The notes below the pieces were generated by a model, which worked only from the letters and a program-made list of their open reading frames with translations, was not told the origin of the DNA and searched no databases. A program made the position numbers and the translations under genes. From Macrostomum lignano (taxonomy: Eukaryota), in contig NIVC01005061.1 of the NCBI GenBank assembly GCA_002269645.1, positions 1 through 27,458 on the forward strand: a stretch of DNA of 27,458 nt. Direction: 5' to 3'. Positions 137 through 19,404 of the stretch are shown here, one piece after another. Within the stretch, counting starts at the first letter, position 1; every line of letters begins with the position of its first letter.

Positions 137-946
137 TTATTTTCTCTTTGGTATTTCATCTGCAGTAATGATCGAAGGAGCAGTAGATTCTGCTTCATCA
201 ATAGCAATGTCACGAAGATTGAGTGTTCTCTCAAGACGATTAAGCCTCTTTAGTGTTTTACCCAAGAGCTATACATTCCATTTAGATAGCTACTGTGTGA
301 TACATCGTTTCTCTCTAATGCTTGAAGTCTTTCTTTAATTCTATCATGCAACGCTGTTGACTGGTTCATGAACTCTTCTAAATTCCTCACTTTAACTGTG
401 TTTGTGAAAAATTCTTTTTCAAGAATGCGCATCTGTCTAGCAGTAGAATTTCTCAGAAGATTAATTGTCAATACCAACCCGTTGATTTGCGAGACTGCCG
501 AAGTTATTTCTGACCTTAGTTCAAACCTGTACATAAAGCTTATCACGTTCAAACTTCTGCCTGGCCACTTTTATGCGGAGATCTTCTATGTTTATCTGTA
601 GCTGGTGCTTTGATCGCTCTAATTGTTTCAGTCTGTTTTTATTCAGTTTGATCTCTGGGATCTCTTCGGCTTTAATAAAATGTTGTTGCTGTGGTTGTGG
701 TTGTTGTTGTTGCTGTTGTTGTGGTTGTTCTAGATATTTTATGACTTCCCCCTGATCTTGCAAACCGAACCATACTTTGATGTGCTTGTACTTTTTGAAT
801 CTAGTCAGGTTGACACCGTTATCATACATAAGTCTCAGGACTTCTGGGGCCTTTAGTATTTCTATATCTCTACCAAGAGCAAAAGTCACTAGATCTCTAT
901 AGTTCTTTAGCTGTTTGTCCGAGATTCTCTCTTGGTTCTTGGTCAT
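137..946 (-). pseudogene. Fusion ORF: Q-rich protein N-terminus joined to coiled-coil protein (frameshifted)
   Basis: ORFs 521-946 and 250-552. MTKNQERISDKQLKNY...Q-tract matches C 22730-23009, IPEIKLNKNRLK...LHDRIK matches C 20460-20810, and the tail RLNRLERTLNL matches C RIGRLERLHNL. Confidence 0.75.
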
Positions 947-951
947 AAAAT

Positions 952-1467
952 TCAGTAAGGTTTCTGTGAAAAAATGCTCTTAGTTTCCGAGCCTTTGAAA
1001 ACAGAAATATTTTCCTTATTTATGTCGATATAATATTCCACTGGTTCATTATAAATATTTTTTCTCCACATACTTATTCCAAATACATATTTCCCATCAT
1101 GTTCTACACGCTCTACTGGTCCAAAAATGTTATCTGTCACTTTTAGTTGCTGTTGTTGTGGTTGTGATTGTTGTGGTTGCGGCTGTTTCTGTGGTTGCGG
1201 CTGTTGTGGTTGCGGTTGTATCTGTGGTGCTTCTGGAATTTTGCCCAAAACCTTTTGCACCTGGGTTTCCTGTATGTCGTCGATAGTTTCTTTGACCTGA
1301 TCAATATTTTTCTTAGCTTCTCCATACCCGGGCTTATGAAACTCTGTGGCTGCTTGGACAAACTCATTGTAGGATTGTTGCTCCTTATTTATTAGCCCGG
1401 TAACTCGTTTCTCTGCTTGTGCTAGCTTCTCCAATTCAGATATCTGCTGTGTACTTTTTCGCTTCAT
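952..1467 (-). CDS. Maverick hypothetical Q/P-rich protein (copy A)
   Basis: 171-aa ORF, near-identical to 23048-23494 but with a longer QP tract. Head-to-head with the capsid gene. Confidence 0.75.
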   Translation of the reverse strand: MKRKSTQQISELEKLAQAEKRVTGLINKEQQSYNEFVQAATEFHKPGYGEAKKNIDQVKETIDDIQETQVQKVLGKIPEAPQIQPQPQQPQPQKQPQPQQSQPQQQQLKVTDNIFGPVERVEHDGKYVFGISMWRKNIYNEPVEYYIDINKENISVFKGSETKSIFSQKPY

Positions 1468-1497
1468 TTCTTATTTTATTTTATTTTTAGTTAAAAA

Positions 1498-1559
1498 ATG
1501 AACGACCCACTGACACCAGTTTTCTACAAAATGAACAAGCCTATTTTGAGTGATGATAG
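1498..1559 (+). pseudogene. 5' stub of major capsid protein gene, truncated by insertion
   Basis: MNDPLTPVFYKMNKPILSDD matches the start of the ORF at 23525. Confidence 0.9.
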
Positions 1560-1813
1560 TGTAGTGACTGGCTGCTATCTGGTTATTCAGCAGCATTCAC
1601 TAGCTTTCCCTAAGGGCGCTGTGATCCGCTGCACAGTAGCTCAGTCCACCTGATCTAGTGAGAGAGATACCCTGTGCTGGGCCTAAGTGTTTACTGCCCG
1701 ATGACTCATCGCCTGAGCAGGCGTGGGCAGCCACACTCAATGTCTTCCCACTCGCGCTGAGAGGCGTAGCAGGATGACTCATCACCTGCGCGGAGTGTAA
1801 TGGCTGCCCAGAG
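1560..1813. mobile_element. Probable 5' part of an LTR, interrupted by Maverick B
   Basis: Begins TGTAGTG exactly at the capsid-gene break, is non-homologous to the Maverick and has two GATGACTCATC (AP-1 core) motifs. The other end is not in the window. Confidence 0.5.
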
Positions 1814-1857
1814 AGTAGAAGGCATGAGGGGGCTTCTGGGACAAAATTTTTCACCTC

Positions 1858-2143
1858 CTCCATAATCCACCTAAATCCATCCATATTATCCCTGACAGAA
1901 TCAGAAAAAAAGGGGGGTCGCACTCGCTAACAAAACGTCCTCCATAATCCACCTAAATCCTTCCATATTATCCCTGACAGAATAAGAAAAAAAAGGGGGG
2001 TCGCACCCGCTCACAAAACGTCCTCCATAATCCCATTAAATCCATCCATATTATCCCCGAAAGAATCATGAAAAAGGGGAGGGGCCGCACTTGCTCCGAA
2101 AACTTTAATCCCATTAAATCCATCCATATTATGACTGACAGAA
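1858..2143 (+). repeat. ~83-bp tandem subrepeats inside TIR (3.5 units in B, 2.5 in C)
   Basis: CTCCATAATCC..TAAATCCATCCATATTATCCC..ACAGAAT units start at 1858, 1940 and 2023, followed by a partial unit. Confidence 0.9.
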
Positions 2144-2355
2144 TATGGGAATATGGGTCCACTGATACCTGTTATGCTCACTGACACAGACATAATCCAC
2201 TGACATCCATCCATAGCATCTTCGAAACAATCAGAAAAAAATATGCATTCTTCTCCCCACATTCAATTCGCAACATGAAACCAGATCCCTAAAACTTTAA
2301 ACCCCCTAACCCAGGGTCCTTACCCTTTGAAAAAAAAATTAAATTTTCTCTAAAA

Positions 2356-2972
2356 ATGTTTCCAGTTGTCTCTCCAGGTTCTTATTACAAAGCGCACGAG
2401 CCTAATTACAAGAGTAAGTACCGATGCAAACTAGAATGCAGCGAGTACATGAGAAAATATTGGCCCGACGTTGATATCAATGTCCCTAATATTAATCTAG
2501 CTCTCCAAAGACACTGGTTTCATAAGTATGGAGTAACCTACGTAAAAGATTACGACAGCTACTGTGACGTAGCGAGTTCGAGATGTAGTCAGCGATTAAT
2601 TAATTATTAGTTGTTTATTTATTAGTTATTTATTTATTGGTTAGCTAGTTCAGTTATTAGTAGTGTTGACACGCATGGTACGAGACAAAATGCCGAGTTG
2701 AGGAGAGTACAAAAAACGAGCGCGAGGTAACAATTTAAATTGTCAAGATGTCTATCAAAAAAGTAATAACAACTTGGACTGAAATAAATAAAACTTCAAG
2801 TACATTTTTTTCTAAATAAATTACATTGAATTAATAGCTGGGAAACCTGCAAATTAATCAACTACAATAATTTGAAGTAATAAAAACTCAGATAGAAACT
2901 AAAAATTTAAGATGCTAACGACATCGTCACAGCTACTATAACTTTGCAGAAATAATTAGGCAATTGCGTTAG
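2356..2972 (+). pseudogene. TIR-encoded ~80-aa protein disrupted by solo LTR
   Basis: MFPVVSPGSYY...KDYDSY then LTR. Removing 2563-2936 restores YNFAEIIRQLR*, as in 9666-9905. Confidence 0.8.
2563..2931. mobile_element. Solo LTR, 369 bp
   Basis: TGTGACG...CGTCACA inverted termini, 5-bp TSD GCTAC (2558-2562 and 2932-2936) and internal AATAAA. Absent from both TIRs of C. Confidence 0.9.
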
Positions 2973-2991
2973 GCGTGTGAAAGTACTAACA

Positions 2992-3383
2992 TTTAAAAAT
3001 GGCCCCACTGGTAGCCATTCTAAGCGTTCTCATTGGTTGATAAGATTATACTAAAGAGAGAGTGGAAATGACTTGTTACTAAAAATAACTCAAGACAGAT
3101 ATTGCGATCGTGTCAATTTAAAATTGGCTGGCCCCACTGGTAGCCATTCTAAGCGTTCTCATTGGTTGATAAGATTATACTAAAGAGAGAGTGGAAATGA
3201 CTTGTTACTAAAAATAACTCAAGACTGCTAATACGGTCGTATTTAAAATTGGCTGGCCCCACTGGTAGCCATTCTAAGCGTTCTCATTGGTTGATAAGAT
3301 TATACTAAAGAGAGAGTGGAAATGACTTGTTACTAAAAATAACTCAAGACTGATATTGCGATCGTCTCAATTTAAAATTGGCT
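2992..3383. repeat. Three ~125-129-bp direct repeats with ~104-bp invariant core and short variable linkers
   Basis: GGCCCCACTGG...CTCAAGAC at 3001, 3130 and 3255. Each unit has ATTGG (CCAAT) and TGATAA motifs. Confidence 0.95.
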
Positions 3384-3402
3384 AAGTCATAACCCGTAAC
3401 CG

Positions 3403-4041
3403 TCACTGTCTCCACATCGCCGCATCCGCCTGGTAGCGAACCTCGTCCCGAATGAGCTTCATATTTTCCAGAACGAAGCTAACTGGTACGGCGCAGCGTT
3501 GTAAGGCCGGAAATTCTGTCAATAAGTCGTACACTCTCAACTTCTTGTCCAAAGTCTGCCTCGATACTTGTAGATTAAGCCGTCGAATTATATTCCGAAC
3601 CGACTTTAGTGTACGTTTGAGCCGGTGAATGATGGAGCCGATGTAAAATGACACAATTAATGTGCGCTTATCATAAAAATTCTCATGCTGAAATAATTCC
3701 ACCAGCATGTTCTGTACAGTGGGTAGAACAGTGGGTAGATGACGAAAGTTCAACGCGTGCATACTTTCCTCGATAACTGATAGCTCCCTTGTTGGCGCTT
3801 GAACTTCGACTCCATACGAAGCACGAAGGCGCTGGAAAACAGCAGCTACTCGTGCTTCGTAGGTGGAAATATCGCGTTGGGTTTGTCCTTCCATGCGAGC
3901 CAAATCGTGCTGTATTTCCTCTTCTTTGAAATTTTCAAACAATTGTTGGAGTCCATCTCTCTGCTCTAAAGGTGTTAAATTAATCAAATCGTTCACAAAT
4001 GCGTTAAGTCGAGCGGTTCTAACTGTAATTCTTTCAGCCAT
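3403..4041 (-). CDS. Orphan 212-aa alpha-helical protein of the variable cassette (possible DNA-binding protein)
   Basis: Intact ORF. Collinear motifs are shared with 10455-11078 (LRASY/LRTAY, IG/LG, FPALQRCAV/YPVLQRSAM). Confidence 0.8.
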   Translation of the reverse strand: MAERITVRTARLNAFVNDLINLTPLEQRDGLQQLFENFKEEEIQHDLARMEGQTQRDISTYEARVAAVFQRLRASYGVEVQAPTRELSVIEESMHALNFRHLPTVLPTVQNMLVELFQHENFYDKRTLIVSFYIGSIIHRLKRTLKSVRNIIRRLNLQVSRQTLDKKLRVYDLLTEFPALQRCAVPVSFVLENMKLIRDEVRYQADAAMWRQ

Positions 4042-4708
4042 TGCGTTTTCTAATAGGAATTGAGTGAAGAGGGCTGGCTGGCTTCCGCCTATACTTAAAA
4101 ACCGTCATGTAGGGTTTGAGGTGGTAGTGGTTGCTGCGCCGCGCCAATATTTTGGCAATTGGAAAGGAAAGCCGTCTCCACACTAGGTAGTCTTTCGTGC
4201 TATGAACTGACTGGTTGATTGGGGTTGCCAAAGCGGAAAGGAAAGCATGCGTGGAAGTTGTACATTCGCAAAATCGATTAAAAGGCTACGCTCCTTAAGC
4301 AAATAGCAGTCGATCAACCACATAACCTCTCTCTGCTTCTCAACTTTTCAAATGCAGCTGTTGCGTTCGGCCAGGGCTGAGAATAATAGTTAAACCCTTC
4401 CCGACTCAAACGCCTCTCTCTACTCCCCCCATATCTTCATACCGTAGAGACCAACTAGGCGGGCCACATTCCGAGGCCAAATCGGCGGGCCGAGGCCAAC
4501 TCGGCGGGCCAACTGGCCTCGCAATTTGGCCAATAATCAATATCAATCAAACATACACAGTCCATGCATGCTAATGGCGGCGAAGCGGTTGACTTTTTAT
4601 TTTCTGCTCTTAGCTCTCTGGAGAATGAGAATCTCTCTTGTGCGCAACTCTTTAGGGAATAAAAAACTGTACTTACTCAAATCCACACTTGCTCATGCCC
4701 TTCCCGAT

Positions 4709-5209
4709 TCAAGCGCCCCTTTCTACCCCCAGCTCTTTCAGCAGTCTTCCTAGTACCTTGTGAGGTGCGCACAAAATAAACCCGGCTCCCGTGCGTTCGC
4801 CCTCTCTCCCCGTGCACTCGCCCTCTCTCCCCAAACACCCGCCCTCGGCGTACACCCCCAACCCCAGTTTTGTCTTACTAAAAATAACAGCTTTAACTAG
4901 CTTCCGAGCGATCGACTCCTTCCACCCGCTTGAAGCCCCTATATTGTCTAGTCTCTTAAGCATTTCTTTGTCCCAGCGATTCTTCTCCTCAGGAAAATCT
5001 CTATATTTAACATCGTGCCACATGCAGACAGAGTCTAGCTCGTTCACAGGCTCATGCCCAGGATGTGGATTATTGTTTTTATCTAGCTGTATTTCAAGTG
5101 GATTCAAAGGCCCGCAATATTTATAGCCGGGAAGTGTCCAGCCTTTGTTCGGATGAGGAAGCTTTTCTATCAGTCCATGTGAATCTAACTTACCACCAGA
5201 GCGCTGCAT
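4709..5209 (-). CDS. PLA2X: parvovirus-type phospholipase A2 domain protein
   Basis: WTLPGYKYCGPLN Ca-loop-like motif and VCMWHDVKY catalytic HD motif. Likely start is MQRSGG at 5209. The C-terminus is uncertain. Confidence 0.85.
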   Translation of the reverse strand: MQRSGGKLDSHGLIEKLPHPNKGWTLPGYKYCGPLNPLEIQLDKNNNPHPGHEPVNELDSVCMWHDVKYRDFPEEKNRWDKEMLKRLDNIGASSGWKESIARKLVKAVIFSKTKLGLGVYAEGGCLGREGECTGREGERTGAGFILCAPHKVLGRLLKELGVERGA

Positions 5210-9210: not shown

Positions 9211-9216
9211 TACACA
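9211..9216 (+). repeat. Left 6-bp target-site duplication TACACA of copy C
   Basis: Repeated at 26370-26375. Single copy in the uninterrupted polB at 17442-17447. Confidence 0.97.
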
Positions 9217-9903
9217 AGTAGAAGGCATGAGGGGGCTTCTGGGACAAAATTTTTCACCTCCTCCATAATCCACCTAAATCCATCCATATTATCCCTGACA
9301 GAATCAGAAAAAAAGGGGGGTCGCACTCGCTCACAAAACGTCCTCCATAATCCCATTAAATCCATCCATATTATCCCCGACAGAATCATGAAAAAGTGGA
9401 GGGGTCGCACTTGCTCCGAAAACTTCGAACATAATCGTATTAAATCCATCCATATTATCCCTGACAGAATCAGAGCAGGTGTCCACTAACACCTGTTATG
9501 TTCACTGACACTGACATAATCCACTAACATCTTCGAAACAATAAGAAAATAATCTGAATTCTTCTCCCCACATTCAATTTGCAACGTGCTACCAGATCCC
9601 TAAGACTTTAAATTATCAGCGCAGGGTCCTTACCCTTTGAAAAAAAATAATAAATTCTCAATAAAATGTTTCCAGTTGTCTCTCCAGGTTCTTATTATAC
9701 TCAGCCTAATCCATTGTACAAATCCAAGTACCAATGCAAACTAGAATGCAGCGAGTACATGAGAAAATATTGGCCCGATGTTGATATCAATGCCCCTAAT
9801 ATTAATCTAGCTCTTCAAAGACACTGGTTTCATAAGTACGGAGTAACATATGTAAAAGATTACGACAGCTATTATAACTTTGCAGAAATCATTAGACAAT
9901 TGT
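9217..9903 (+). repeat. Left TIR of copy C (~687 bp)
   Basis: Reverse complement of 25697-26369. Confidence 0.95.
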
Positions 9904-9905
9904 AG
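9666..9905 (+). CDS. TIR-encoded 79-aa hypothetical protein
   Basis: Intact ORF with AAAATG start, conserved in all three TIR copies in the window. Confidence 0.65.
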   Translation: MFPVVSPGSYYTQPNPLYKSKYQCKLECSEYMRKYWPDVDINAPNINLALQRHWFHKYGVTYVKDYDSYYNFAEIIRQL

Positions 9906-10256
9906 AATGTCGTTACGATACGCTTTAAGACTTTAAGACTGCAATAATAGATATTTTTACGCATGGTATTTTGCTGTGTGGCGGGTGGGTGATAGCGGAA
10001 TGGGTATGGCAGCTGTTTCTGGTCATAGCGCGAGCGGCGTGTGCAGCATAGAGAAAAAAGCTTTTGCCCAGCTCAACCCTAACTAGCTCAGAAGATCCCT
10101 TGCCTAGCTTCAGAAACGCCCATTTAGTTCCTTGTTTAAACCCCCAGCCTTTTCAACCCCCAGCTCTTTCAGCAGTCTTCCTAGATCTTTCCCAGGCAAC
10201 CCCAATCAACCATTAATAGAAAATACTGGCTATAAGTAGAAAATCTGCGGGTTTCC

Positions 10257-10337
10257 CTTCTAGAATTCGAATTCTAGAAAATTCTAGAACAAAAAGAGAA
10301 TCCGTGGATTCCCGAGCCCACACCAATGGTATATATA
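10257..10337 (+). promoter_or_regulatory. Heat-shock element plus CCAAT and TATA-like box upstream of 10455 ORF
   Basis: aTTCtaGAAaaTTCtaGAAc at 10271-10290 (4 perfect alternating nGAAn units), cTTCtaGAAt at 10257-10266, CCAAT at 10323, TATATATA at 10330-10337. Confidence 0.7.
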
Positions 10338-10454
10338 CAGCCGATTCACACCGCCCCTCGCCTCACCCTGCCTGCCCCGCCTCGCCTCACCCCGCCTCAA
10401 CTCGCTGAGCCAGCAACTTCTTATTTTTGACTAGCTTAATCTCTGGATCTTGCC

Positions 10455-11078
10455 ATGGATGAAGAAATGCAAGCAGGCAACAACGTTTACATCCAAAATC
10501 TGGAGAACTTCATCAAGGCGGTTTTTTCTAGTAAAGATCTCGACAACTGGAATCTTTGGGCCGATAAATACAATGCAATTGCTCGGTCACCAATCGTGAA
10601 GCCAACTATCAATGGACGGCTAGCGAAAACTACCGACAAGCAATTACAAATCGGCAAGGCTCTGGACGAGTTGCGCACGGCCTATAAAACCAACAGTGAG
10701 CCTGTGCCAGTGCATTCTCTAGAAGAATTTATGCAGGGAACATTTACGATCGACGCAGTGCTTGTACAGATTGCCAACCTTCATAAGCTAGTTGAACGGT
10801 ATGGTAAGCATGGCTTTGCAAACGGCCTACAGCTCGGCAGGATCTCTCTGAGAATGGAGCGGGTTCTCAGTAAGGAACAGTTCAACGAGCTGAAAAGACG
10901 TGCACCGTTCACCAGCCAGTGGACCAACTTTCTGATGAAATTGGCTGACCAAGCTGAGAAATATCCGGTGCTACAAAGATCTGCAATGTCCCTGCACAAG
11001 CTGAAGTCGATGATTGCATACTTGCCAGAGGCCCTTGCGATGCTGCAACAGGAAGTGGACGAAGGCTTGTTGTTTTAA
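10455..11078 (+). CDS. Orphan 207-aa alpha-helical protein of the variable cassette, distant homolog of 3403-4041
   Basis: Intact ORF with GCCATGG start context and shared collinear motifs with the B protein. Confidence 0.8.
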   Translation: MDEEMQAGNNVYIQNLENFIKAVFSSKDLDNWNLWADKYNAIARSPIVKPTINGRLAKTTDKQLQIGKALDELRTAYKTNSEPVPVHSLEEFMQGTFTIDAVLVQIANLHKLVERYGKHGFANGLQLGRISLRMERVLSKEQFNELKRRAPFTSQWTNFLMKLADQAEKYPVLQRSAMSLHKLKSMIAYLPEALAMLQQEVDEGLLF

Positions 11079-11164
11079 CTTTTAAATTACCTATCTATTG
11101 TTTATTTAGCAACTCATGAAGCTACAATAATAGCAAGTTATCCTTGGATAGTTACTAATGTTGA

Positions 11165-12165
11165 CACCAACCTCAAATTTTGAAACCACTGGTTTCATTT
11201 TCTGAGGTGGGTGTTTGATTAAAATAGCAAATTTGCTTGAGACAGTGTAGACAAATGTTTCTGCTGGAAGCAGTGCAGAACTCAGATCACCCACCTCAAA
11301 ATTTGAAACCAACGGTTTCATTTTCTGAGGTGGGTGTTTGACTAGGAGAGCGTAGAAGAAAACGGAGGGATCACCCAGAAGGTTGTACCTTGTAGAGTGT
11401 AGACGTAAGTTCTAAAAATAAAACCCATACAATGTGTTGGGAGAGCGTAGAAGAGATCACCCACCTCAAAATTTGAAACCAGTGGTTTCATTTTCTGAGG
11501 TGGCTGTTTGACTAAGCTCGGGAGAGCGTAGAAGAAAACGGAGCGGCTAGTTGTGGAGGCTAGAAAACGAAAGACCCCTCCCGCCCGGCTCAACCCTCAA
11601 CCCTCTGCAATTCTGGAGAGAGAAGGGGGGGGAGAGAGAAGGGGGGGGGGACTTGTGGCGGAATGCGCGGACTGCATGCAGTGAGTGGCAGGGCGGGTGA
11701 GAACTGGATAGCGCAGCAGTGTAGACCCACCTCAAAATTTGAAACCAGTGGTTTCATTTTCTGAGGTGGCTGTTTGACTAAGCTCGGGAGAGCGTAGAGC
11801 TAGTTGCAGAGGCTAGAGAAGCAGTGCAGAACTCAGATCACCCACCTCAAAATTTGAAACCAGCGGTTTCATTTTCTGAGGTGGCGCGGCGCCCCTGTGC
11901 AAAGAGAGCCCAGTGCTCTGGCCCGGACTGCTGGGGAAGGGAAAGGGAGAGGAGCTCAAGGGGAAGGAGATTTCAGTACAACGGGAGACTCAAAATTCCC
12001 AGGCGCCCCTCTACCCCCCAGCGCGAGATCGCTAGTGTTATGTTTGACTACAAATAGAATGAGCTCGGGAGAGCGTAGAGCTAGTTGCGGAGGCTAGAGA
12101 AGCAGTGCAGAACTCAGATCACCCACCTCAAAATTTGAAACCAGCGGTTTCATTTTCTGAGGTGG
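11165..12165. repeat. Array of six ~48-bp imperfect palindromes with mosaic spacers
   Basis: CCACCTCAAAATTTGAAACCnnnGGTTTCATTTTCTGAGGTGG near 11165, 11288, 11458, 11725, 11839 and 12120. Confidence 0.95.
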
Positions 12166-12335
12166 CTGTTTGACTAGGAGAGCGTAGAGCTAGTTGCGAA
12201 GAGAGAGAGGCACCCAGAGGACAGGCTTGGAATGAGAGGCGGTAGGGCAAGACGGGTGAGAGAAGGGCTGGAGAAAAAGCAGGCGCTCACCCAGAAACCT
12301 TTTATATTGTTGCATAGTTTAGACCCTGCACATAC

Positions 12336-12642
12336 GGGGTTATAGCCTAGTGGTTAGGGCGTCGGACTCACTACTTGAATGAAGGTTGAGGGTTCGATTC
12401 CCGATCCCACTGCAACAATCTGTGTCTTTGAGCAAGGCACTTTACTCCGCATTGCTTCAGTTCACCCAGCTGTAAAATGGGTGCCAGCATTAGCTGGGGT
12501 AATTGAGGGTGTGTGTGGCGACCCCCAGTCCTTGGACTGAACAGCCGTACGCAGCCTTAAGATGCGCCGCGCAATAGCTGCGGCTGAGCTGTCGATTGCA
12601 CATCTGCCCATTGGGCAGTTGTAATCAATTATTATTATTATT
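12336..12642 (+). mobile_element. tRNA-derived SINE with CORE-like central domain
   Basis: A-box TAGCCTAGTGG at 12343, B-box GGTTCGATTCC at 12391, TTTGAGCAAGG...CTGTAAAATGG core-like segment and (ATT)n tail. No clear TSD. Confidence 0.85.
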
Positions 12643-12969
12643 TACCTACGATAGGCATTCTGTCTTCTGCTGCATGCTCTGTTGTTGCCACGTTGCTTAC
12701 CACATGAAAAACTATAATAAACTAATAAACTATATAGCGACTATAATCTGTCGCTACAGTCCTTCAGTTGTTTATCAATGTAAACTGTTCAGCAGTCTTT
12801 CTAATTCTTTATTTGGCGTGCGCAATACAAAGGAAAGAAAGGAAAGGAAAGGGAAGCACGCGTGGAACTTGTACATTCGCAAAAGCTGCGCTCCCTCAGC
12901 AAATAGCAGTTACCCCACCCCCTTTCAAAATGCAGCTGTTGCGCTTGGCTGCGAATAATCTTTCCCGAC

Positions 12970-13458
12970 TCAAGCGCCTCTCTCAACCCCCAGCTCTTTC
13001 AGCAGTCTTCCTAATACCTCGTTTGGAGCACACAAAATAAACCCCGCTCCCGAGCACTCCGCACACCCGCCCTCTCTCCCCAAACACCCACCTTCGCCTT
13101 GAACCCCCAAACCCAATCTTGTCTTACTAAAAATAACAGCTTTAACTAGCTTCCGAGCGATCGACTCACGAAATCCGCTTGAAGCCCCTATATTGTCTAG
13201 TCTCTTAAGCATTTCTTTGTCCCAGCGATTCTTCTCCTCAGGAAAATCTCTATATTTAACATCGTGCCACATGCAGACAGAGTCTAGCTCATTCACAGGC
13301 TCATGCCCAGGATTTGGGTTGTTGTTTCCATCCAGCTGTATTTCAAGAGGATTCAAAGGCCCGCAATATTTATAGCCGGGAAGTGTCCAGCCTTTGTTTG
13401 GATGAGGAAGCTTTTCTATCAGTCCATGTGAATCTATTTTACCACCAGAGCGTTGCAT
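12970..13458 (-). CDS. PLA2X phospholipase A2 domain protein (copy C)
   Basis: Same YCGP and HDVKY motifs as in B. Likely start is MQRSGG at 13458. Confidence 0.85.
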   Translation of the reverse strand: MQRSGGKIDSHGLIEKLPHPNKGWTLPGYKYCGPLNPLEIQLDGNNNPNPGHEPVNELDSVCMWHDVKYRDFPEEKNRWDKEMLKRLDNIGASSGFRESIARKLVKAVIFSKTRLGLGVQGEGGCLGREGGCAECSGAGFILCAPNEVLGRLLKELGVERGA

Positions 13459-13488
13459 TATTTTATTTAAAATTTTCTTTTTAAATAA

Positions 13489-14517
13489 ATGACAGATCAG
13501 AAACTTAAAAAACTCTACTACAGCGACAAAGGATTCTTTGTAGGCAAAAATGCCGTTAGTAAACTCATGGAGCTGAGTAAAGAGCCAAAAGCTACAGTAG
13601 AAAAATGGCTCTCTAAGCAGGCTGTCTTTCAAGTCTATTTCCCACCAGTAAAATTTGAAAGGCCCCATTTCAGTATTTATAAACCTAATGAAGCGCACCA
13701 AGCAGATCTTTTGTTTCTCCCCAACGACTCAGGCTACAAGTATGCTCTTACAATTATTGACATTGCTTCCAGATATAAGGAAGCTCGCCCACTCAAGACG
13801 AAGAAGTCAGAGGTTGTTGCCAGCGCACTGCAAGATATTTATAAAAACTCTCCGCTCACATACCCCCAAATCTTTATGACCGACCCGGGTAAGGAATTCA
13901 TGGGTGTAGTGAAATCCCTTATGGAAAAGAAAAACACAGAGATTCGCTATGGCAGAACAAACTTGCACAGAGACCAGGCTTTTGTGGAAAGATTCAATCT
14001 AACTCTAGCCAAGAGACTATTCACTAAGCAGACAGCGCAAGAACTCAAACTGAGTGCGGGGCAGTACTATACCAAGTGGACAGAAAGACTCCCCACTGTT
14101 ATAGAGCAACTGAACAATGAAGTCACACGCATGACTGGATTGAAACCATCCCATGCAATTAAACAAGACACTGTCGAACTTAAGGCATCTCATAGAACAG
14201 ACAACAACACGACAACCCCACACAACACAAAACACACCTCGAACTACCCTAAGCTTCCAGGAGTTGAATCACCATACATACTGACAAACTCTGAGTTTCT
14301 ACGCTTTTTATATCTACCTGGAGAGCTAGAGAAAGACACCAAAAGAAGAGCTACAGATCCATACTTCAGCCTTGATGTGCATAAAATAGACAGACATTTT
14401 ACCTCCGACTCCGGTGACTATTACTTTTTATCTCAAGCCTTTAACCCTAAATCCCCCACGCGGTCATTCACTAGAGCTGAACTCCTAGTGATACCAGCTG
14501 ACACAGAAATTAATTAA
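13489..14517 (+). CDS. int: DDE integrase (copy C), intact 342 aa
   Basis: Near-identical to 5240-6277; lacks one HNT repeat and has N>K near the C-terminus. Confidence 0.95.
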   Translation: MTDQKLKKLYYSDKGFFVGKNAVSKLMELSKEPKATVEKWLSKQAVFQVYFPPVKFERPHFSIYKPNEAHQADLLFLPNDSGYKYALTIIDIASRYKEARPLKTKKSEVVASALQDIYKNSPLTYPQIFMTDPGKEFMGVVKSLMEKKNTEIRYGRTNLHRDQAFVERFNLTLAKRLFTKQTAQELKLSAGQYYTKWTERLPTVIEQLNNEVTRMTGLKPSHAIKQDTVELKASHRTDNNTTTPHNTKHTSNYPKLPGVESPYILTNSEFLRFLYLPGELEKDTKRRATDPYFSLDVHKIDRHFTSDSGDYYFLSQAFNPKSPTRSFTRAELLVIPADTEIN

Positions 14518-14533
14518 AATATTAAAATAAAAA

Positions 14534-14980
14534 ATGACAAAGATTGAAACTAGAACCATCAATAAACTCAATAAAATCATTGAATCAAAGAAACCAGGTA
14601 TTATATCAATTAAAGGTGTCAAAGTAAAAATCGATCCCACGCAGCAAATAGTTCAGTGTAATGAACAAAGACACAGCATCACAGATGAAAAGTCAGGAGG
14701 AATCCTACCATTAGCAGCTCTTATTCCGATCATTGCAGGCGCTGTAAGTGCCGCAGGTGGTGTAGCTGGAGGTGTAGCAACTGCTGTTAAAGCTGGGAAT
14801 GATAGAGCCCACCAGCTGGAATTGCAAAAGATTGCAAGAGACAAAGGTATAACAATTAAGGCAGGAGAGGGCTGCCCCGATCGTGATGATTGTGAGCATG
14901 AAAATTCTGTAAGCAAGTCTGACATTGTCAAAGCCATCATGACACTGCACAATGCTGGGTTTACAATAATGCGGATGTGA
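14534..14980 (+). CDS. pX-like protein (copy C)
   Basis: Near-identical to 6294-6740. Confidence 0.7.
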   Translation: MTKIETRTINKLNKIIESKKPGIISIKGVKVKIDPTQQIVQCNEQRHSITDEKSGGILPLAALIPIIAGAVSAAGGVAGGVATAVKAGNDRAHQLELQKIARDKGITIKAGEGCPDRDDCEHENSVSKSDIVKAIMTLHNAGFTIMRM

Positions 14981-15103
14981 TGAGGTTTAAAACCCCACTT
15001 TATCCAGCTTCATAAACCTAATACTACTTATAGGATGTAGAAACAGTTCAACTTTTCTATCAGGGTGGTCACCCTCAAAATTTTTTTTATATTTTCGAGA
15101 AAA

Positions 15104-18100
15104 ATGCCAAAAGCTAATCCAGCAAGAGATTTAGTCAACAAATATTTTTCAAAAGGCGTCTCATTTCAAGACAAAAGTAATTCACTAAGAGAAGCATGCA
15201 AACAAAAGTTCAACACCGACCCTGGTCACCTGGGAAGCTATGAAAAACAGTTGGAAATCATCAATCAATTAGAATCAAACCAGTATGCGCCTATAAAAAA
15301 TTCTGCAAAGGAACACCAAGAGAGGAGTCGCAACTTAGTTAACAAATATGAAACTCTCACTGGTGAAAAAGCAAAGTACCCACAAAATAAGCAGGAACAA
15401 GAGAAATTAGAGCAATTAATCCATTTAAAAGAGTCGGAGCTTGCCACTGAAGAGATTAATTTTGCACAGACGAAGTTTACAGAACATTACATAGAGTACA
15501 CAATCCCAATTAACGGCACCAACGGTACCACCGCAAACATCTACGACTATAAAGACAGCATCCAATCAGTTGTTGATCACACACTCAAAACACGCAAGAC
15601 CTTTAAACTACAGATATCATTCAAGATTGCGTTTTATATGCCTGCAAAACCCACTGAGCATCTCGAGTATTACATGACAACAAAGGCAAAGCCATTCACC
15701 CCAACAGACACACTGGATCCTTTCCTTCAAGATGTCAATAAGAAAATTGAAGCGTTTACATCCAGAGGTTCCGGATGGGTCGTGGGAGGGATTCAAAGAG
15801 CGACTGTCATGGTCATGAAATATGACCCACTTAAAGCCTCCTCTTATATAGAGCTCCCGCATAAGCTAGCCGGTAAAAAAGCTTGCATAAATGTTAAAAA
15901 TAAAGACAATTGCTGTGCTCTATGGGCAGTTCTTTCTGCACTTTTTAGTGTCCCTCACCACCCCGAAAGAACCTCAAATTATCAAAATTATTTCAACTAC
16001 TATCTCATTGAATGCGAAAAGAAGGGAATCAGGTTTGACAAAGGAGGCTTGGCATCTCTCAGATCCCAAAGCTAGAAGAAGTGTTTAATAACAAAATTAG
16101 AATCACAGTCTTTGAGTGGAGTGAAAAACTGAGAAAGTTCAACCGGTCAGATGTAGCAAAGACGTTTTAGATCCGAGGGGAAAAGGCGGACTGAAGTGGA
16201 TCTTCTAGTGATTGGTAATTTACTAGAGGAGGCTCACTATGTTTGGATTAAAGATCTTTCAAGACTCATTCACAAGCAGTTGAATAATCATCACGAGGCT
16301 GTTGCCATCTGCCGCTTGTGCCTTAAGCATTACAGTGGACCTGAACGCTTTGAAAAACTAGCAGAGCATGAATTATCATGCGAGGATCACCCGACAAACT
16401 GCTCTCTTCCTTCAGCTGAAGAGAAGTATCTCCGGTTTAAGAACTATCACAAGATGGAGAAGCTCCCATTTGTTGTATATGCTGATTTCGAATGCTCAAT
16501 CGTGCCAGAAACTCAAAAACAAACTCCAACTCAAAAACAAACTCCAACTCAAAAACAAACTCAAACTCAAAAACATGTCCCCAATTCAGTAGCATATGCC
16601 TTTATTAATACAAAAGGACTTGTTGAGTATAATTATTTCTTTGGAGAGCAGTGTGTGGAGCAGTTTATTGCCAGAATGTTAGAGTTGCAAAAATGATTAG
16701 CACCCTTCAACCTGTTCCAATAATGATGACTGAGGAGGATGAAAGCAATTTCCTATCAGCAACTCATTGCCACATCTGCAGGAAACATTTAACTTGCACT
16801 AATATTAAAAACCCCACCGTTAGGGACCACTGCCACTATACTGGGAAATTTAGAGGTGCAGCGCATAACACCTGTAATCTAAAGCTAAAATCGAACATTC
16901 ATGATCTAACGATATTTTGTCACAACGCAAAGAACTATGACATGCATTTAATAGTTGAAAAAATCGGCATGATTCCAGACATACACCTTGATTGCATCGC
17001 AGAGAACAAGGAGAAGTTTAAGTGTGTTGATATTAAACAGGATAATTCGGGTAAGGTAAAATAAGACTGAAGGATTCATATCAATTTCTAGCTGCCAGTC
17101 TAGACGAACTAAGCAAGAATCTAAAAGATGAACAATGTACATATACAAAGATGTTTGCAAGTAAAATTAACAACACTGATGAATCATTTAAACTCCTGAG
17201 AACCAAAGGCTTCTACCCCTATGAAAATATTACTGGGTATCACGTATTTGAAGAAGGTTTACCACCACAAGAAGTTCTTTTCAAAGCTAACAGACTCTGG
17301 AATCTCTGACAAAGACTATGAGCACGCGAAGCATGTCTATAATTACTTTAATTGTCAAAACTTCTTCCAGTATCACCTGCTTTACCTCTACACAGATGTG
17401 TTTCTGCTGGCCGATGTGTTTGAAACCTTCAGATCACCTGGTACACAGCATATGGCCTCGATCCAGCACATTATGTGTCTCTGCCTGCCACTAGCTGGGA
17501 ATCTTTGCTTAAAATGAAATGGGATCAAGATCCAGATTGGTACATTGAACTTCTTACAGACATTGACATGTACAATTTTGTCGAATCGTCAAAGCGAGGG
17601 GGAATCTCAATTTGCACAGGTATGCAAAAGCAAACAATCCCTACATTGAATCTTACAATAAGGAGCAGCCCTCAAACTACATTACTTACTTGGACGCTAA
17701 TAATCTCTACGGGTGGGCGATGAGTCAAGATCTTCCAGTTAGAGATTTTCGATGGCTACCCTCATCAGAATTCAAACGGGACTTTTCATTGGCTGCCATT
17801 TATGAGGTTGATGTTTACATTCCACCAGAGCTTCACGACTATTTCTCTGACTTTCCACCCTTCCCAGAGAACATCAAGTGCCCGAAAATAATCGAAACTC
17901 CCAATGATAATAATGGAACTTGGCACCTGTCAGGAACAGAAAAAGAACATACAGAGAAACTAACACAGAATCTAAACAACAAGACACGTTACAAAATCCA
18001 TTACAAACTGCTTCAGTATTTTATCTCACTTGGTTGCAGGGTCACCAAAGTTCACGGGCTCTTACATTTACAGAGGAAGCGTGGATGAAACCCTACATTG

Positions 18101-18970
18101 ATAAGAACACCCAGTTTAGGACCAAAGCAACCAACGACTTTGACAAGAACCTCTTTAAGTTGGCCAACAACTCTGTCTATGGCAAGACTCTTGAGAATGA
18201 GCGGAAAAGAACAAACCTGAAACTTGTTACCTCATCAGAGCCTGATGTTATTCAGGCAAATATGTCAAAGCCAACATTCAAAGAACTCCATATCTTTAAT
18301 AGCTACTTAGGTGTGATCATATTTTACAAAACCAAGGTGACGCTGCGCAAGCCGATCTATACAGGTGTCACTGTTCTCGACGAATCAAAACGTCTGATGT
18401 ACCAGTTCTTCTATGGCATGAAGCAGCAGTACAAGGATAAAATGAAACTCTTGTACACTGACACAGACAGTTTTATTATGGACATTCAAACAGAAGACAT
18501 TTATCAGGACATGCTGCAGCAAAAAGATTTGTTTGACTTGTCTGAGTATGATGAATCTTTCAGGACACAGAATGGCGATCAAGTGTTTGACGCCACTAAC
18601 AAGAAAGTGATTGGGAAAATGAAGGACGAGATTGCTGGTGACATAATCACTGAATTCATTGGGTTGAGAGCAAAGTCCTATTTTATAAAATGTGAGTCGT
18701 CAGACCCAATAAAAAATCAAAGGGAATTCCGAAACGTGTGTTAGGAAGGAAATTAATGAAGCTGAATACAGAGACGCCTTGAATTGCAACAAAAAGACAT
18801 CACATGAGTTCTCAAAGCTACAATCTAAAAACCATATTATTCACACAATTCAGCAAAAGAAGATTGGACTGTCAGGTGCAGATAACAAGAGATTCATTTT
18901 TGATGACAATATCAACAGTCTACCGTTCGGGCATTGGAGGTTAGGTTTAGGAGGTGGATATTGGGTTTAG
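15104..18970 (+). pseudogene. polB: Full-length protein-primed PolB with many 1-bp frameshifts
   Basis: Fragments carry YADFE, YLDANNLYGWAM, KLANNSVYGK and YTDTDS motifs in order. Confidence 0.95.
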
Positions 18971-19003
18971 GTTTGAGAGAAAGTTTAATAAACCTCATAA
19001 AAA

Positions 19004-19404
19004 ATGACAACAAATAACTTTCTTGAAGATTTGGCTAACGAACTGGAAATCCCAAACTTTAGAGGAATATTTATGAGGGACACTCTGCCTGATTTTCCTC
19101 TAAGAAAAGAATGCGGCATCATGAACTTTGACACCACCGATAAGCCAGGATCTCATTGGGTTTGCTGGGTGATTGATCCCATCGCAAGCACAAGTGTTAT
19201 TACTTCGATAGCTATGGGACGGCAGTACCAGAAGAGCTAAGAAATTATATGAAGGGAAAAAATAATAAAAAAATTTATCGCTCAGACTTTATTCTCCAAG
19301 GTCTTAGCAGTGATATTTGCGGTGAGCTGTGCATGACTGTTTTGTATGCAATGACCAAAACACGAAAGACCTACAAGGAAATTATTCTTGGCTGTGTTTC
19401 ATAG
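19004..19404 (+). pseudogene. Adenain-like cysteine protease (frameshift near 19190)
   Basis: GSHWVCW, then in the shifted frame YYFDSYG and Q...DICGELC: H/D/Q/C catalytic set. Confidence 0.9.

Follow-up and report, generated by a model that had tools for sequence, protein, structure and literature searches.

Six long palindromes stand close together in the window (the whole 27,458-nucleotide stretch of Macrostomum lignano contig NIVC01005061.1 that was analyzed), and the question is what kind of DNA carries them and what they do there. A preliminary description made from the letters alone likened them to baculovirus hr regions and proposed that they were selected binding or cruciform sites (origin, enhancer or episome tether) or recombination sites. 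The six palindromes and their 3-nt centers (ACT, AAC, AGT, AGT, AGC and AGC) are as it reported. It described nested dyads of about 48 bp; the nesting holds, and the symmetric core measures 43 bp, with about 45 to 49 bp in some copies. The core has the layout 8-5-7-3-7-5-8, that is, outer box, linker, inner box and center, then the same parts mirrored. The dyads, which have no strand assigned, occupy 11168 to 11210 (dyad 1, the most diverged of the six), 11291 to 11333 (dyad 2), 11461 to 11503 (dyad 3), 11727 to 11769 (dyad 4), 11842 to 11884 (dyad 5), and 12123 to 12165 (dyad 6). Their centers fall at 11189, 11312, 11482, 11748, 11863, and 12144, and the center-to-center distances are 123, 170, 266, 115, and 281 bp. 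The outer and inner boxes are conserved, as had been noted, with the exception of the left outer box of copy 1, which reads CAACCTCA. The boxes are symmetric, whereas the 5-bp linkers are not (AAATT or AATTT versus TTTTC).

We scored symmetry across the window and obtained 16 to 18 of 21 positions at the six centers, compared with 14 at the best other site. When the window was base-shuffled 100 times, 99 of the shuffles lacked any site of at least 17 and the remaining one had a single such site. All dyad and half-dyad matches in the surrounding 17-kb element lie within 11168 to 12165, so the array is a single cluster, and no standalone half-dyad was recognizable in the element at up to 4 mismatches in 20.

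Self-BLAST, the target site duplication (TSD), and Pfam matches place this cluster in a 17.2-kb Maverick/adintovirus-like element, which we call B (9217 to 26369, no strand assigned). Self-comparison shows B as an insertion within the pPolB gene of a sister element, A, the left TIR of which begins at 1814. B is flanked by the 6-bp TSD TACACA (9211 to 9216 and 26370 to 26375), has the ends AG...CT, and carries TIRs of about 690 bp, as expected of a Maverick or adintovirus. Its left TIR (9217 to 9903, plus strand) and right TIR (25697 to 26369) are 94% identical over 691 nt and contain 83-bp tandem repeats. Four Pfam assignments exceeded the cut-off: rve integrase (E 2e-8 in B), pPolB (DNA_pol_B_2, found with E 1.8e-6 in A, whose copy has 97.9% identity to the one in B, where the gene is in pieces), a PLA2-like domain, and an adenovirus pX-like protein. 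A Pox_A32 ATPase (E 0.002) and a double-jelly-roll-like protein (E 0.02) both scored below the Pfam cut-off, and the protease-like pieces had no Pfam match. This gene set agrees with a Maverick of the adintovirus type (PMC8502044, in part).

Several features of the surroundings deserve a record of their own. The segment 325 to 1559 matches 20374 to 20811 and 22731 to 23586 at 85 to 90% and represents a third, rearranged Maverick copy. A sits in or beside that copy, with 254 bp of unrelated DNA (1560 to 1813) ahead of its TIR, so that the locus is a multiple nest. A 367-bp block (2562 to 2928) interrupts the end of A's TIR. The tandem repeats in the TIRs have units of 82 to 84 bp (1856 to 2144, 9259 to 9474, and 26117 to 26327), with 3.6 copies in A and 2.6 in B, and an ORF of about 80 aa points inward from the TIR at both ends (9663 to 9902, 2353 to 2610, and in the right TIR), with no Pfam match over cut-off. 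Many of B's core genes (13489 to 25730) are in pieces, while a 207-aa ORF and the integrase are open. Some of these gene breaks may be assembly errors, since several letters of the window differ from all four public runs that were compared.

The preliminary description allowed for one finding that would separate the palindromes from Mavericks altogether, namely that the unit is a dispersed host MITE or satellite, which would here have landed in the element. One observation in its favor is that a host insertion does lie right beside the array, in the form of a tRNA-headed, very high-copy SINE-like sequence (12336 to 12643, plus strand) at which the array region ends. We tested the idea using depth in four public runs of the organism, of 20 listed, counting only relatives of at least 85% identity; depth as used here is not equal to copy number. 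Array depth tracks that of the adjacent 207-aa ORF: in run X12, array bins ranged from 890 to 5,189 and ORF bins from 2,063 to 3,887, as against 162,130 to 256,333 for TIR bins and up to 4.7 million for the SINE. Runs X1, X5, and X7 gave the same order, with the array similar to the ORF and far below the TIR or SINE. That the array lies within a Maverick that has TIRs and a 6-bp TSD is further evidence against a MITE or satellite, and we consider the chance of such an origin negligible. In each of the four runs the region has far less depth than the TIR, and the cassette that carries the array is a minority type in a large family. As for the SINE-like element itself, it has an (ATT)n tail and is extremely abundant in the runs, and contigs of X1 and X7 join it to flanking element DNA, which means that the insertion is common to other samples.

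The nested arrangement allows the two sister elements to be compared directly. Over the first 4.5 kb of the core, A and B have 97.9% identity, but they differ in a slot between the left TIR and the core (2562 to 4700 in A, 9904 to 12961 in B). In B, the slot holds the 207-aa ORF (P0001; 10455 to 11078, plus strand), which belongs to an unnamed family with a weakly DUF3102/HTH-like C-terminal part, and the dyads begin 90 bp behind it. In A, the same slot holds a 212-aa paralog (P0002; 3403 to 4041, minus strand), and 20 bp behind its stop codon are three 125-bp tandem repeats (3000 to 3383, no strand assigned), each of which contains a CCAAT box. Both arrays sit between converging ORFs, in B the 207-aa gene and the PLA2-like gene. 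The 125-bp unit of A has no relation to the unit of B (P = 0.38 and 0.99), and A's array is without the outer box.

The two proteins match each other in BLASTP at E 0.003, and a family profile of the 207-aa protein matches the paralog in hhalign with 93% probability (E 3.4e-7, 137 columns). The 300 bp upstream of each ORF share an exact 18-mer in the same sense, compared with a longest match of 12 in 100 shuffles. This CCAAT-containing element lies at 10195 to 10212 on the plus strand and at 4212 to 4229 on the minus strand, so the cassettes have a common ancestry, promoter included. The cassette is thus low-copy, and a paralogous cassette with a different array replaces it in the sister element. 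Pieces of the border between core and variable region recur in both variable regions (10147 to 10184, 12788 to 12831, 4395 to 4427, 4698 to 4753, and 12962 to 13013), and are possible footprints of cassette-swapping recombination.

We searched for relatives of the accessory proteins in several ways. Four of six HMMER hits to the 207-aa protein are credible relatives, the best at 45% over 200 aa, and one relative is from M. lignano; the other two hits, P0006 and P0007, are long repeat proteins that we dropped as spurious. Word-index homolog searches returned none for P0001 or P0002 and only P0008 for A1, and no related loci were found for P0001, P0002, alignment A2, or the integrase. A PDB sequence search with the accessory protein gave no match, and PHROGs, NCBIfam, and phage tblastn gave nothing convincing for the accessory proteins. 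Single-sequence structure models reached pLDDT values of 40 and 38, and a fold search returned generic helical bundles. Weak hints of a helix-turn-helix (HTH) come from a Tc3 HTH match to P0002 (E 0.0008) and an HTH regulator match to P0003 (E 0.01). DUF3102 (PF11300) appeared at Atlas rank 30, and in an hhalign comparison of 15 rows from 14 loci it had a probability of 34% (E 4e-4), above 100 of 100 block shuffles, which falls to 2% with the alignment without P0002. No Pfam family, DUF3102 included, passed the cut-off for the 207-aa protein. DUF3102 may itself be a ParB/KorB-like HTH. One or both of the paralogs could conceivably match an "Adintoc" family of adintoviruses.

The spacers between the dyads record how the array grew. 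Counted between 45-bp units they measure 78, 125, 221, 70, and 236 bp, close to the range of about 70 to 235 bp given before, and the shared modules named in the preliminary description are present. Its "unique" inserts need qualification: spacer 1 is related, with divergence, both to the 70-bp base spacer and to the DNA ahead of copy 1, and the sequences inserted in spacers 2 and 5 turn up in other contexts in public runs. The simplest spacer is the 70-bp spacer 4 (11771 to 11840), which together with dyad 4 makes up the simplest unit of 115 bp. Spacers 2, 3, and 5, like the stretch that follows copy 6, can be written as this base unit plus inserts of 11 to 155 bp and short deletions, two of which sit at dyad edges. 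The spacer-2 insert (11379 to 11430, plus strand) is 3 to 7 times deeper than its neighbors in three of the four runs. In one contig of one run it is joined to the TIR end, and at that junction it completes a different 9-3-9 palindrome, although this was judged by eye on a side of 30 letters and is weak. The spacer-5 insert (11886 to 12040, plus strand) begins at the edge of dyad 5, and 11891 to 12040 also occurs, with 12 differences in 150, in a 1570-nt contig of other context. Compared with the rest of the window, none of the inserts beat all shuffles (best 2/30).

Because inserts recur in other contexts, the spacers must have been scrambled by recombination with sibling or host DNA. The array expanded by local duplication of a unit of about 115 bp, and its spacer acquired foreign pieces. 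One could go further and regard the dyads themselves as recombination or capture sites, i.e. as entry points for pieces of sibling elements by an integron- or CRISPR-like logic, given that the start of the spacer-5 insert coincides exactly with a dyad edge and that the sequences inserted in spacers 2 and 5 are present elsewhere. Against this, the other inserts lie inside the spacer, the lengths vary from 11 to 155 bp, no dyad duplication accompanies them, and the 25 window ORFs scanned contain no recombinase or Cas-like family apart from the rve integrase. We therefore find capture sites very improbable. Two further patterns were observed here. The plus strand of the array region (11244 to 12188), inserts included, has 12 occurrences of the word AGYGYAGA; the window has 16, against a chance mean of 3.1. 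Clusters of G-runs that are in principle capable of forming quadruplexes lie in spacer 3 (11603 to 11650), in spacer 5 (11933 to 11963), and in the leader of the ORF (10354 to 10393).

Five of the six dyad copies are near-identical, so most of their conservation reflects recent duplication. Among the six copies, we counted one change in 30 box columns and four in 13 linker and center columns (P = 0.03). The earlier proposal that the dyads are selected thus draws some weak support (P about 0.03) from a pattern that self-correcting palindromes yield as well; arm-to-arm repair could mimic the difference between boxes and linkers with no selection at work. Among the run variants listed, the spacers have 10 and the cores none (P about 0.05), a count that leaves out 121 substitutions and 7 indels and is affected by the ambiguous mapping of the repeated cores. 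Taken together, selection on the dyads is suggested. The centers ACT and AGT are inversions of each other, and two occurrences of TCACCCAGAA, at 11371 and 12287, may be broken (truncated) left arms.

All of this has to be weighed against a neutral account, in which the array is a hypervariable minisatellite: chance palindromes would form hairpins during strand-displacement copying and lead to slippage, template switching, duplication, arm repair, and uptake of sibling scraps, with no selected function. The family is repeat-prone near its ends, as the 83-bp repeats in the TIR and the 125-bp repeats in A attest, and such a process is in keeping with spacers built from a base unit by insertion and deletion (at dyad edges in two cases), inverted ACT and AGT centers, inserts that occur in other contexts, and possibly truncated arms. 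It leaves unexplained, however, why there should be a 43-bp nested dyad with asymmetric linkers and no standalone half of it, and why the outer box should precede the ATG of both paralogs, as described below. We regard the neutral account as the main rival, a real possibility if an unlikely one. Were it correct, the array would be an ordinary repeat in a repeat-prone region, and the proteins (two paralogs and their relatives) would still constitute a new Maverick accessory family.

We found 13 matches to the outer box, CCRCCTCA, in the window, 11 of them in the array. The other two lie 56 to 63 bp before B's ATG and 76 to 83 bp before A's, both in the sense direction; the latter reads CCACCTCA (4117 to 4124, minus strand). 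The R in this consensus was chosen to fit after inspection. For the 7-mer CRCCTCA, four of seven matches outside the array precede the two paralog ATGs, and a looser test was not significant, as a 10-bp dyad match occurred in 10 of 86 ordinary 300-bp windows. In B, three CGCCTCA words, one of them a full CCRCCTCA, lie at 10359 to 10399 on the plus strand, 56 to 96 bp before the ATG, with a CCAAT at 10323 and a TATA-like sequence at 10330 just upstream.

Still farther upstream, 10249 to 10289 (no strand assigned) contains a kappaB-like 9-mer (10249 to 10257) that abuts a 22-bp perfect palindrome and a four-unit TTCnnGAA array (10272 to 10289), the latter of which we take to be heat-shock-element-like. 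The perfect four-unit array (TTCnnGAA twice) is the sole match in the window, with a chance mean of 0.01; the kappaB-like 9-mer has a chance mean of 0.41 and is not significant alone. Within the dyads, the canonical ISRE GAAANNGAAA, with the consensus taken from the accessible portion of PMC6954429, makes up part of the right arm in six of six copies (11193 to 12157, minus strand). Spacer 3 has a seventh at 11563, on the plus strand, and none occur elsewhere in the window, so that all seven window matches are in the array (chance mean 3.1; six are copies of one). An ISRE in the right arm would account for the asymmetric linker. Every motif was picked post hoc, after the sequence had been inspected; with that caveat on each of them, the upstream and array motifs together read as a regulated cassette.

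We return to the binding or enhancer sites of the preliminary description, which are still the best reading of the array; other parts of that description fared less well, in that the evidence for selection is weak, there is a single cluster where hrs are dispersed, an internal origin fits poorly, and two left arms may be truncated. Specifically, we predict that the array is the enhancer or operator of an exchangeable accessory cassette and consists of protein-docking sites, a proposal that we consider about evenly poised between right and wrong. Lying in the variable slot that adjoins the left TIR, the cassette would comprise a promoter, a small helical protein, and a repeat array. Each dyad would be a double-stranded docking site with symmetric 8- and 7-bp boxes and A/T linkers, and the six would act jointly as enhancer or operator between the two converging genes. 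The candidate binder is the 207-aa protein, which would sit on the outer boxes as an oligomer, or a host IRF on the ISRE arm, or both. Binding by the 207-aa protein would be autoregulation, because the same box precedes its own ATG. The presence of the outer box upstream of both the ORF and its paralog, together with the weak DUF3102/HTH likeness, strengthens the link to this protein.

Several lines favor docking: symmetry is confined to the boxes and CCRCCTCA precedes both ATGs; both paralogs are trailed by an array within 20 to 90 bp and have the 18-bp upstream element in common; all seven GAAANNGAAA matches are in the array, a perfect TTCnnGAA pair precedes the ORF, and there are weak HTH and DUF3102 hints; and the 10 listed variants are in spacers, with 0 in cores. 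It is weakened by the near-identity of the copies, the self-correction of palindromes, the post hoc choice of motifs, A's unrelated array, and the possible broken arms.

The same symmetry could alternatively serve in RNA, where the dyads would act as hairpins in a transcript of the 207-aa gene or in one of the converging PLA2-like gene (3' UTR or read-through RNA), for 3' end formation, stability, a dsRNA decoy, or a source of small RNA. The predicted folds are strong (−29 and −32 kcal/mol, z about −7), with the minus strand the better one, and the first AATAAA past the stop codon, at 11417 in the spacer-2 insert, lies behind dyads 1 and 2. In a run presumed to be RNA, one contig spans 10689 to 11296, contig depth being no measure of expression, and hairpin-directed 3' ends are known in Mimiviridae from the part of PMC4402537 available to us. 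On the other hand, any palindrome folds, the six copies contain no compensatory change, and the element has no other gene with a hairpin of this kind at its end. No Rfam family reached its gathering score, the only hits being sub-threshold miRNA models and a tRNA at 12336, and ARAGORN found no tRNA. We consider a role in RNA improbable.

A more general proposal can also be made, which we advance as distinctly doubtful. Animal Mavericks may carry interchangeable cassettes of a regulator and its cognate array beside the TIR, in which a DUF3102-like protein would recognize its own array and promoter box, be switched by host HSF or IRF, and set the timing of sub-lineage expression among co-resident elements, with cross-talk between sister types. 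Phage immunity and plasmid incompatibility modules follow an analogous logic of swapped regulators and sites. For the regulation and reawakening of endogenous Mavericks in animals, the cassette supplies one protein, one 43-bp site, and two host-factor motifs for binding and reporter work.

How, then, does the array compare with known systems? In the available parts of PMC4535591 and PMC2834656, baculovirus hrs are described as several dispersed loci of 3 to 8 palindrome-bearing units that act as origin and enhancer and are bound by IE1. Like an hr, the array lies in a non-coding part of a dsDNA virus-like element and is a cluster of units that each contain an imperfect palindrome; a symmetric protein could plausibly dock there, and the array may resemble the enhancer side of an hr. 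A true equivalent would serve as an internal replication origin or as an episome tether to which the 207-aa protein binds; in favor of this, the unit layout (PMC4535591, in part) and the adjoining viral gene can be cited. The preliminary suggestion of an internal origin is a poor fit with a pPolB element, however, because in the accepted model, as stated in the portion of 10.64898/2026.07.28.741278 at hand, pPolB copies the excised element from its TIRs. There is only one cluster rather than several dispersed loci, the sister with the 97.9% identical core lacks it, and the shallow depth of the cassette relative to the TIR in four of four runs implies that most family members do without it. The dyad is also longer than in hrs and nested, with an odd center, and lies in a dispensable cassette of an element with a protein-primed polymerase. 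An internal origin or tether is accordingly a remote prospect, and we rejected the identification with an hr on dispersal, lack of a sequence match in viral contigs, absence from the near-identical sister, and end-priming by pPolB. The 25 window ORFs scanned contain no IE1-like Pfam match.

Other palindromic or repeated systems fit less closely. Dyad patterns had 0 matches in viral contigs and 0 in metagenome contigs, and a relaxed 18-base pattern had 19 single matches in prokaryote genomes, about the number expected by chance and none in arrays. A CRISPR array was rejected because the spacers are uneven (70 to 236 bp) with common modules and no cas genes were found by Pfam among the 25 ORFs, and the Mimivirus hairpin rule because a symmetry of 16 of 21 is attained at the six array sites alone and other genes are without hairpin ends. 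Palindromes reported in protist PLVs are terminal, and those reported in protist polisuviruses are terminal or bracket replicase modules. The ISRE of PMC6954429 is present as an exact core in the right arm of every dyad, here inside a longer dyad whose left arm has a half-site only, and the same source, as far as it was accessible, reports that fewer than 1% of canonical ISREs are IRF3-bound. The likeness to DUF3102 extends over about 60 aligned columns with the pattern G..l...k..l...f......fs and is below any cut-off.

The closest relatives of the element as a whole are Mavericks/Polintons and adintoviruses (PMC8502044, in part), with which it has TIRs, a 6-bp TSD, and pPolB, rve, PLA2-like, and pX-like genes in common, the A32 and double-jelly-roll hits being weak. 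Unlike adintoviruses as described there, it has a palindrome array and an accessory family of this kind; the word stem "palindrom" has 0 matches in the parts of that text and supplement that could be searched. A search that excluded subscription papers turned up no publication in which an animal Maverick has an internal palindrome array, an ISRE, or a cassette of this type, and the Maverick literature searched mentions no cis-element other than TIRs. In logic, the locus is like phage immunity regions and plasmid iteron or partition modules, where a small regulator gene and its own repeated sites are swapped between near-identical elements. It shows no homology to them and has eukaryotic promoter motifs, and cognate binding is hypothetical here. 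The feature itself is real: the palindromes form an array that belongs to an exchangeable accessory cassette carried by an animal Maverick.
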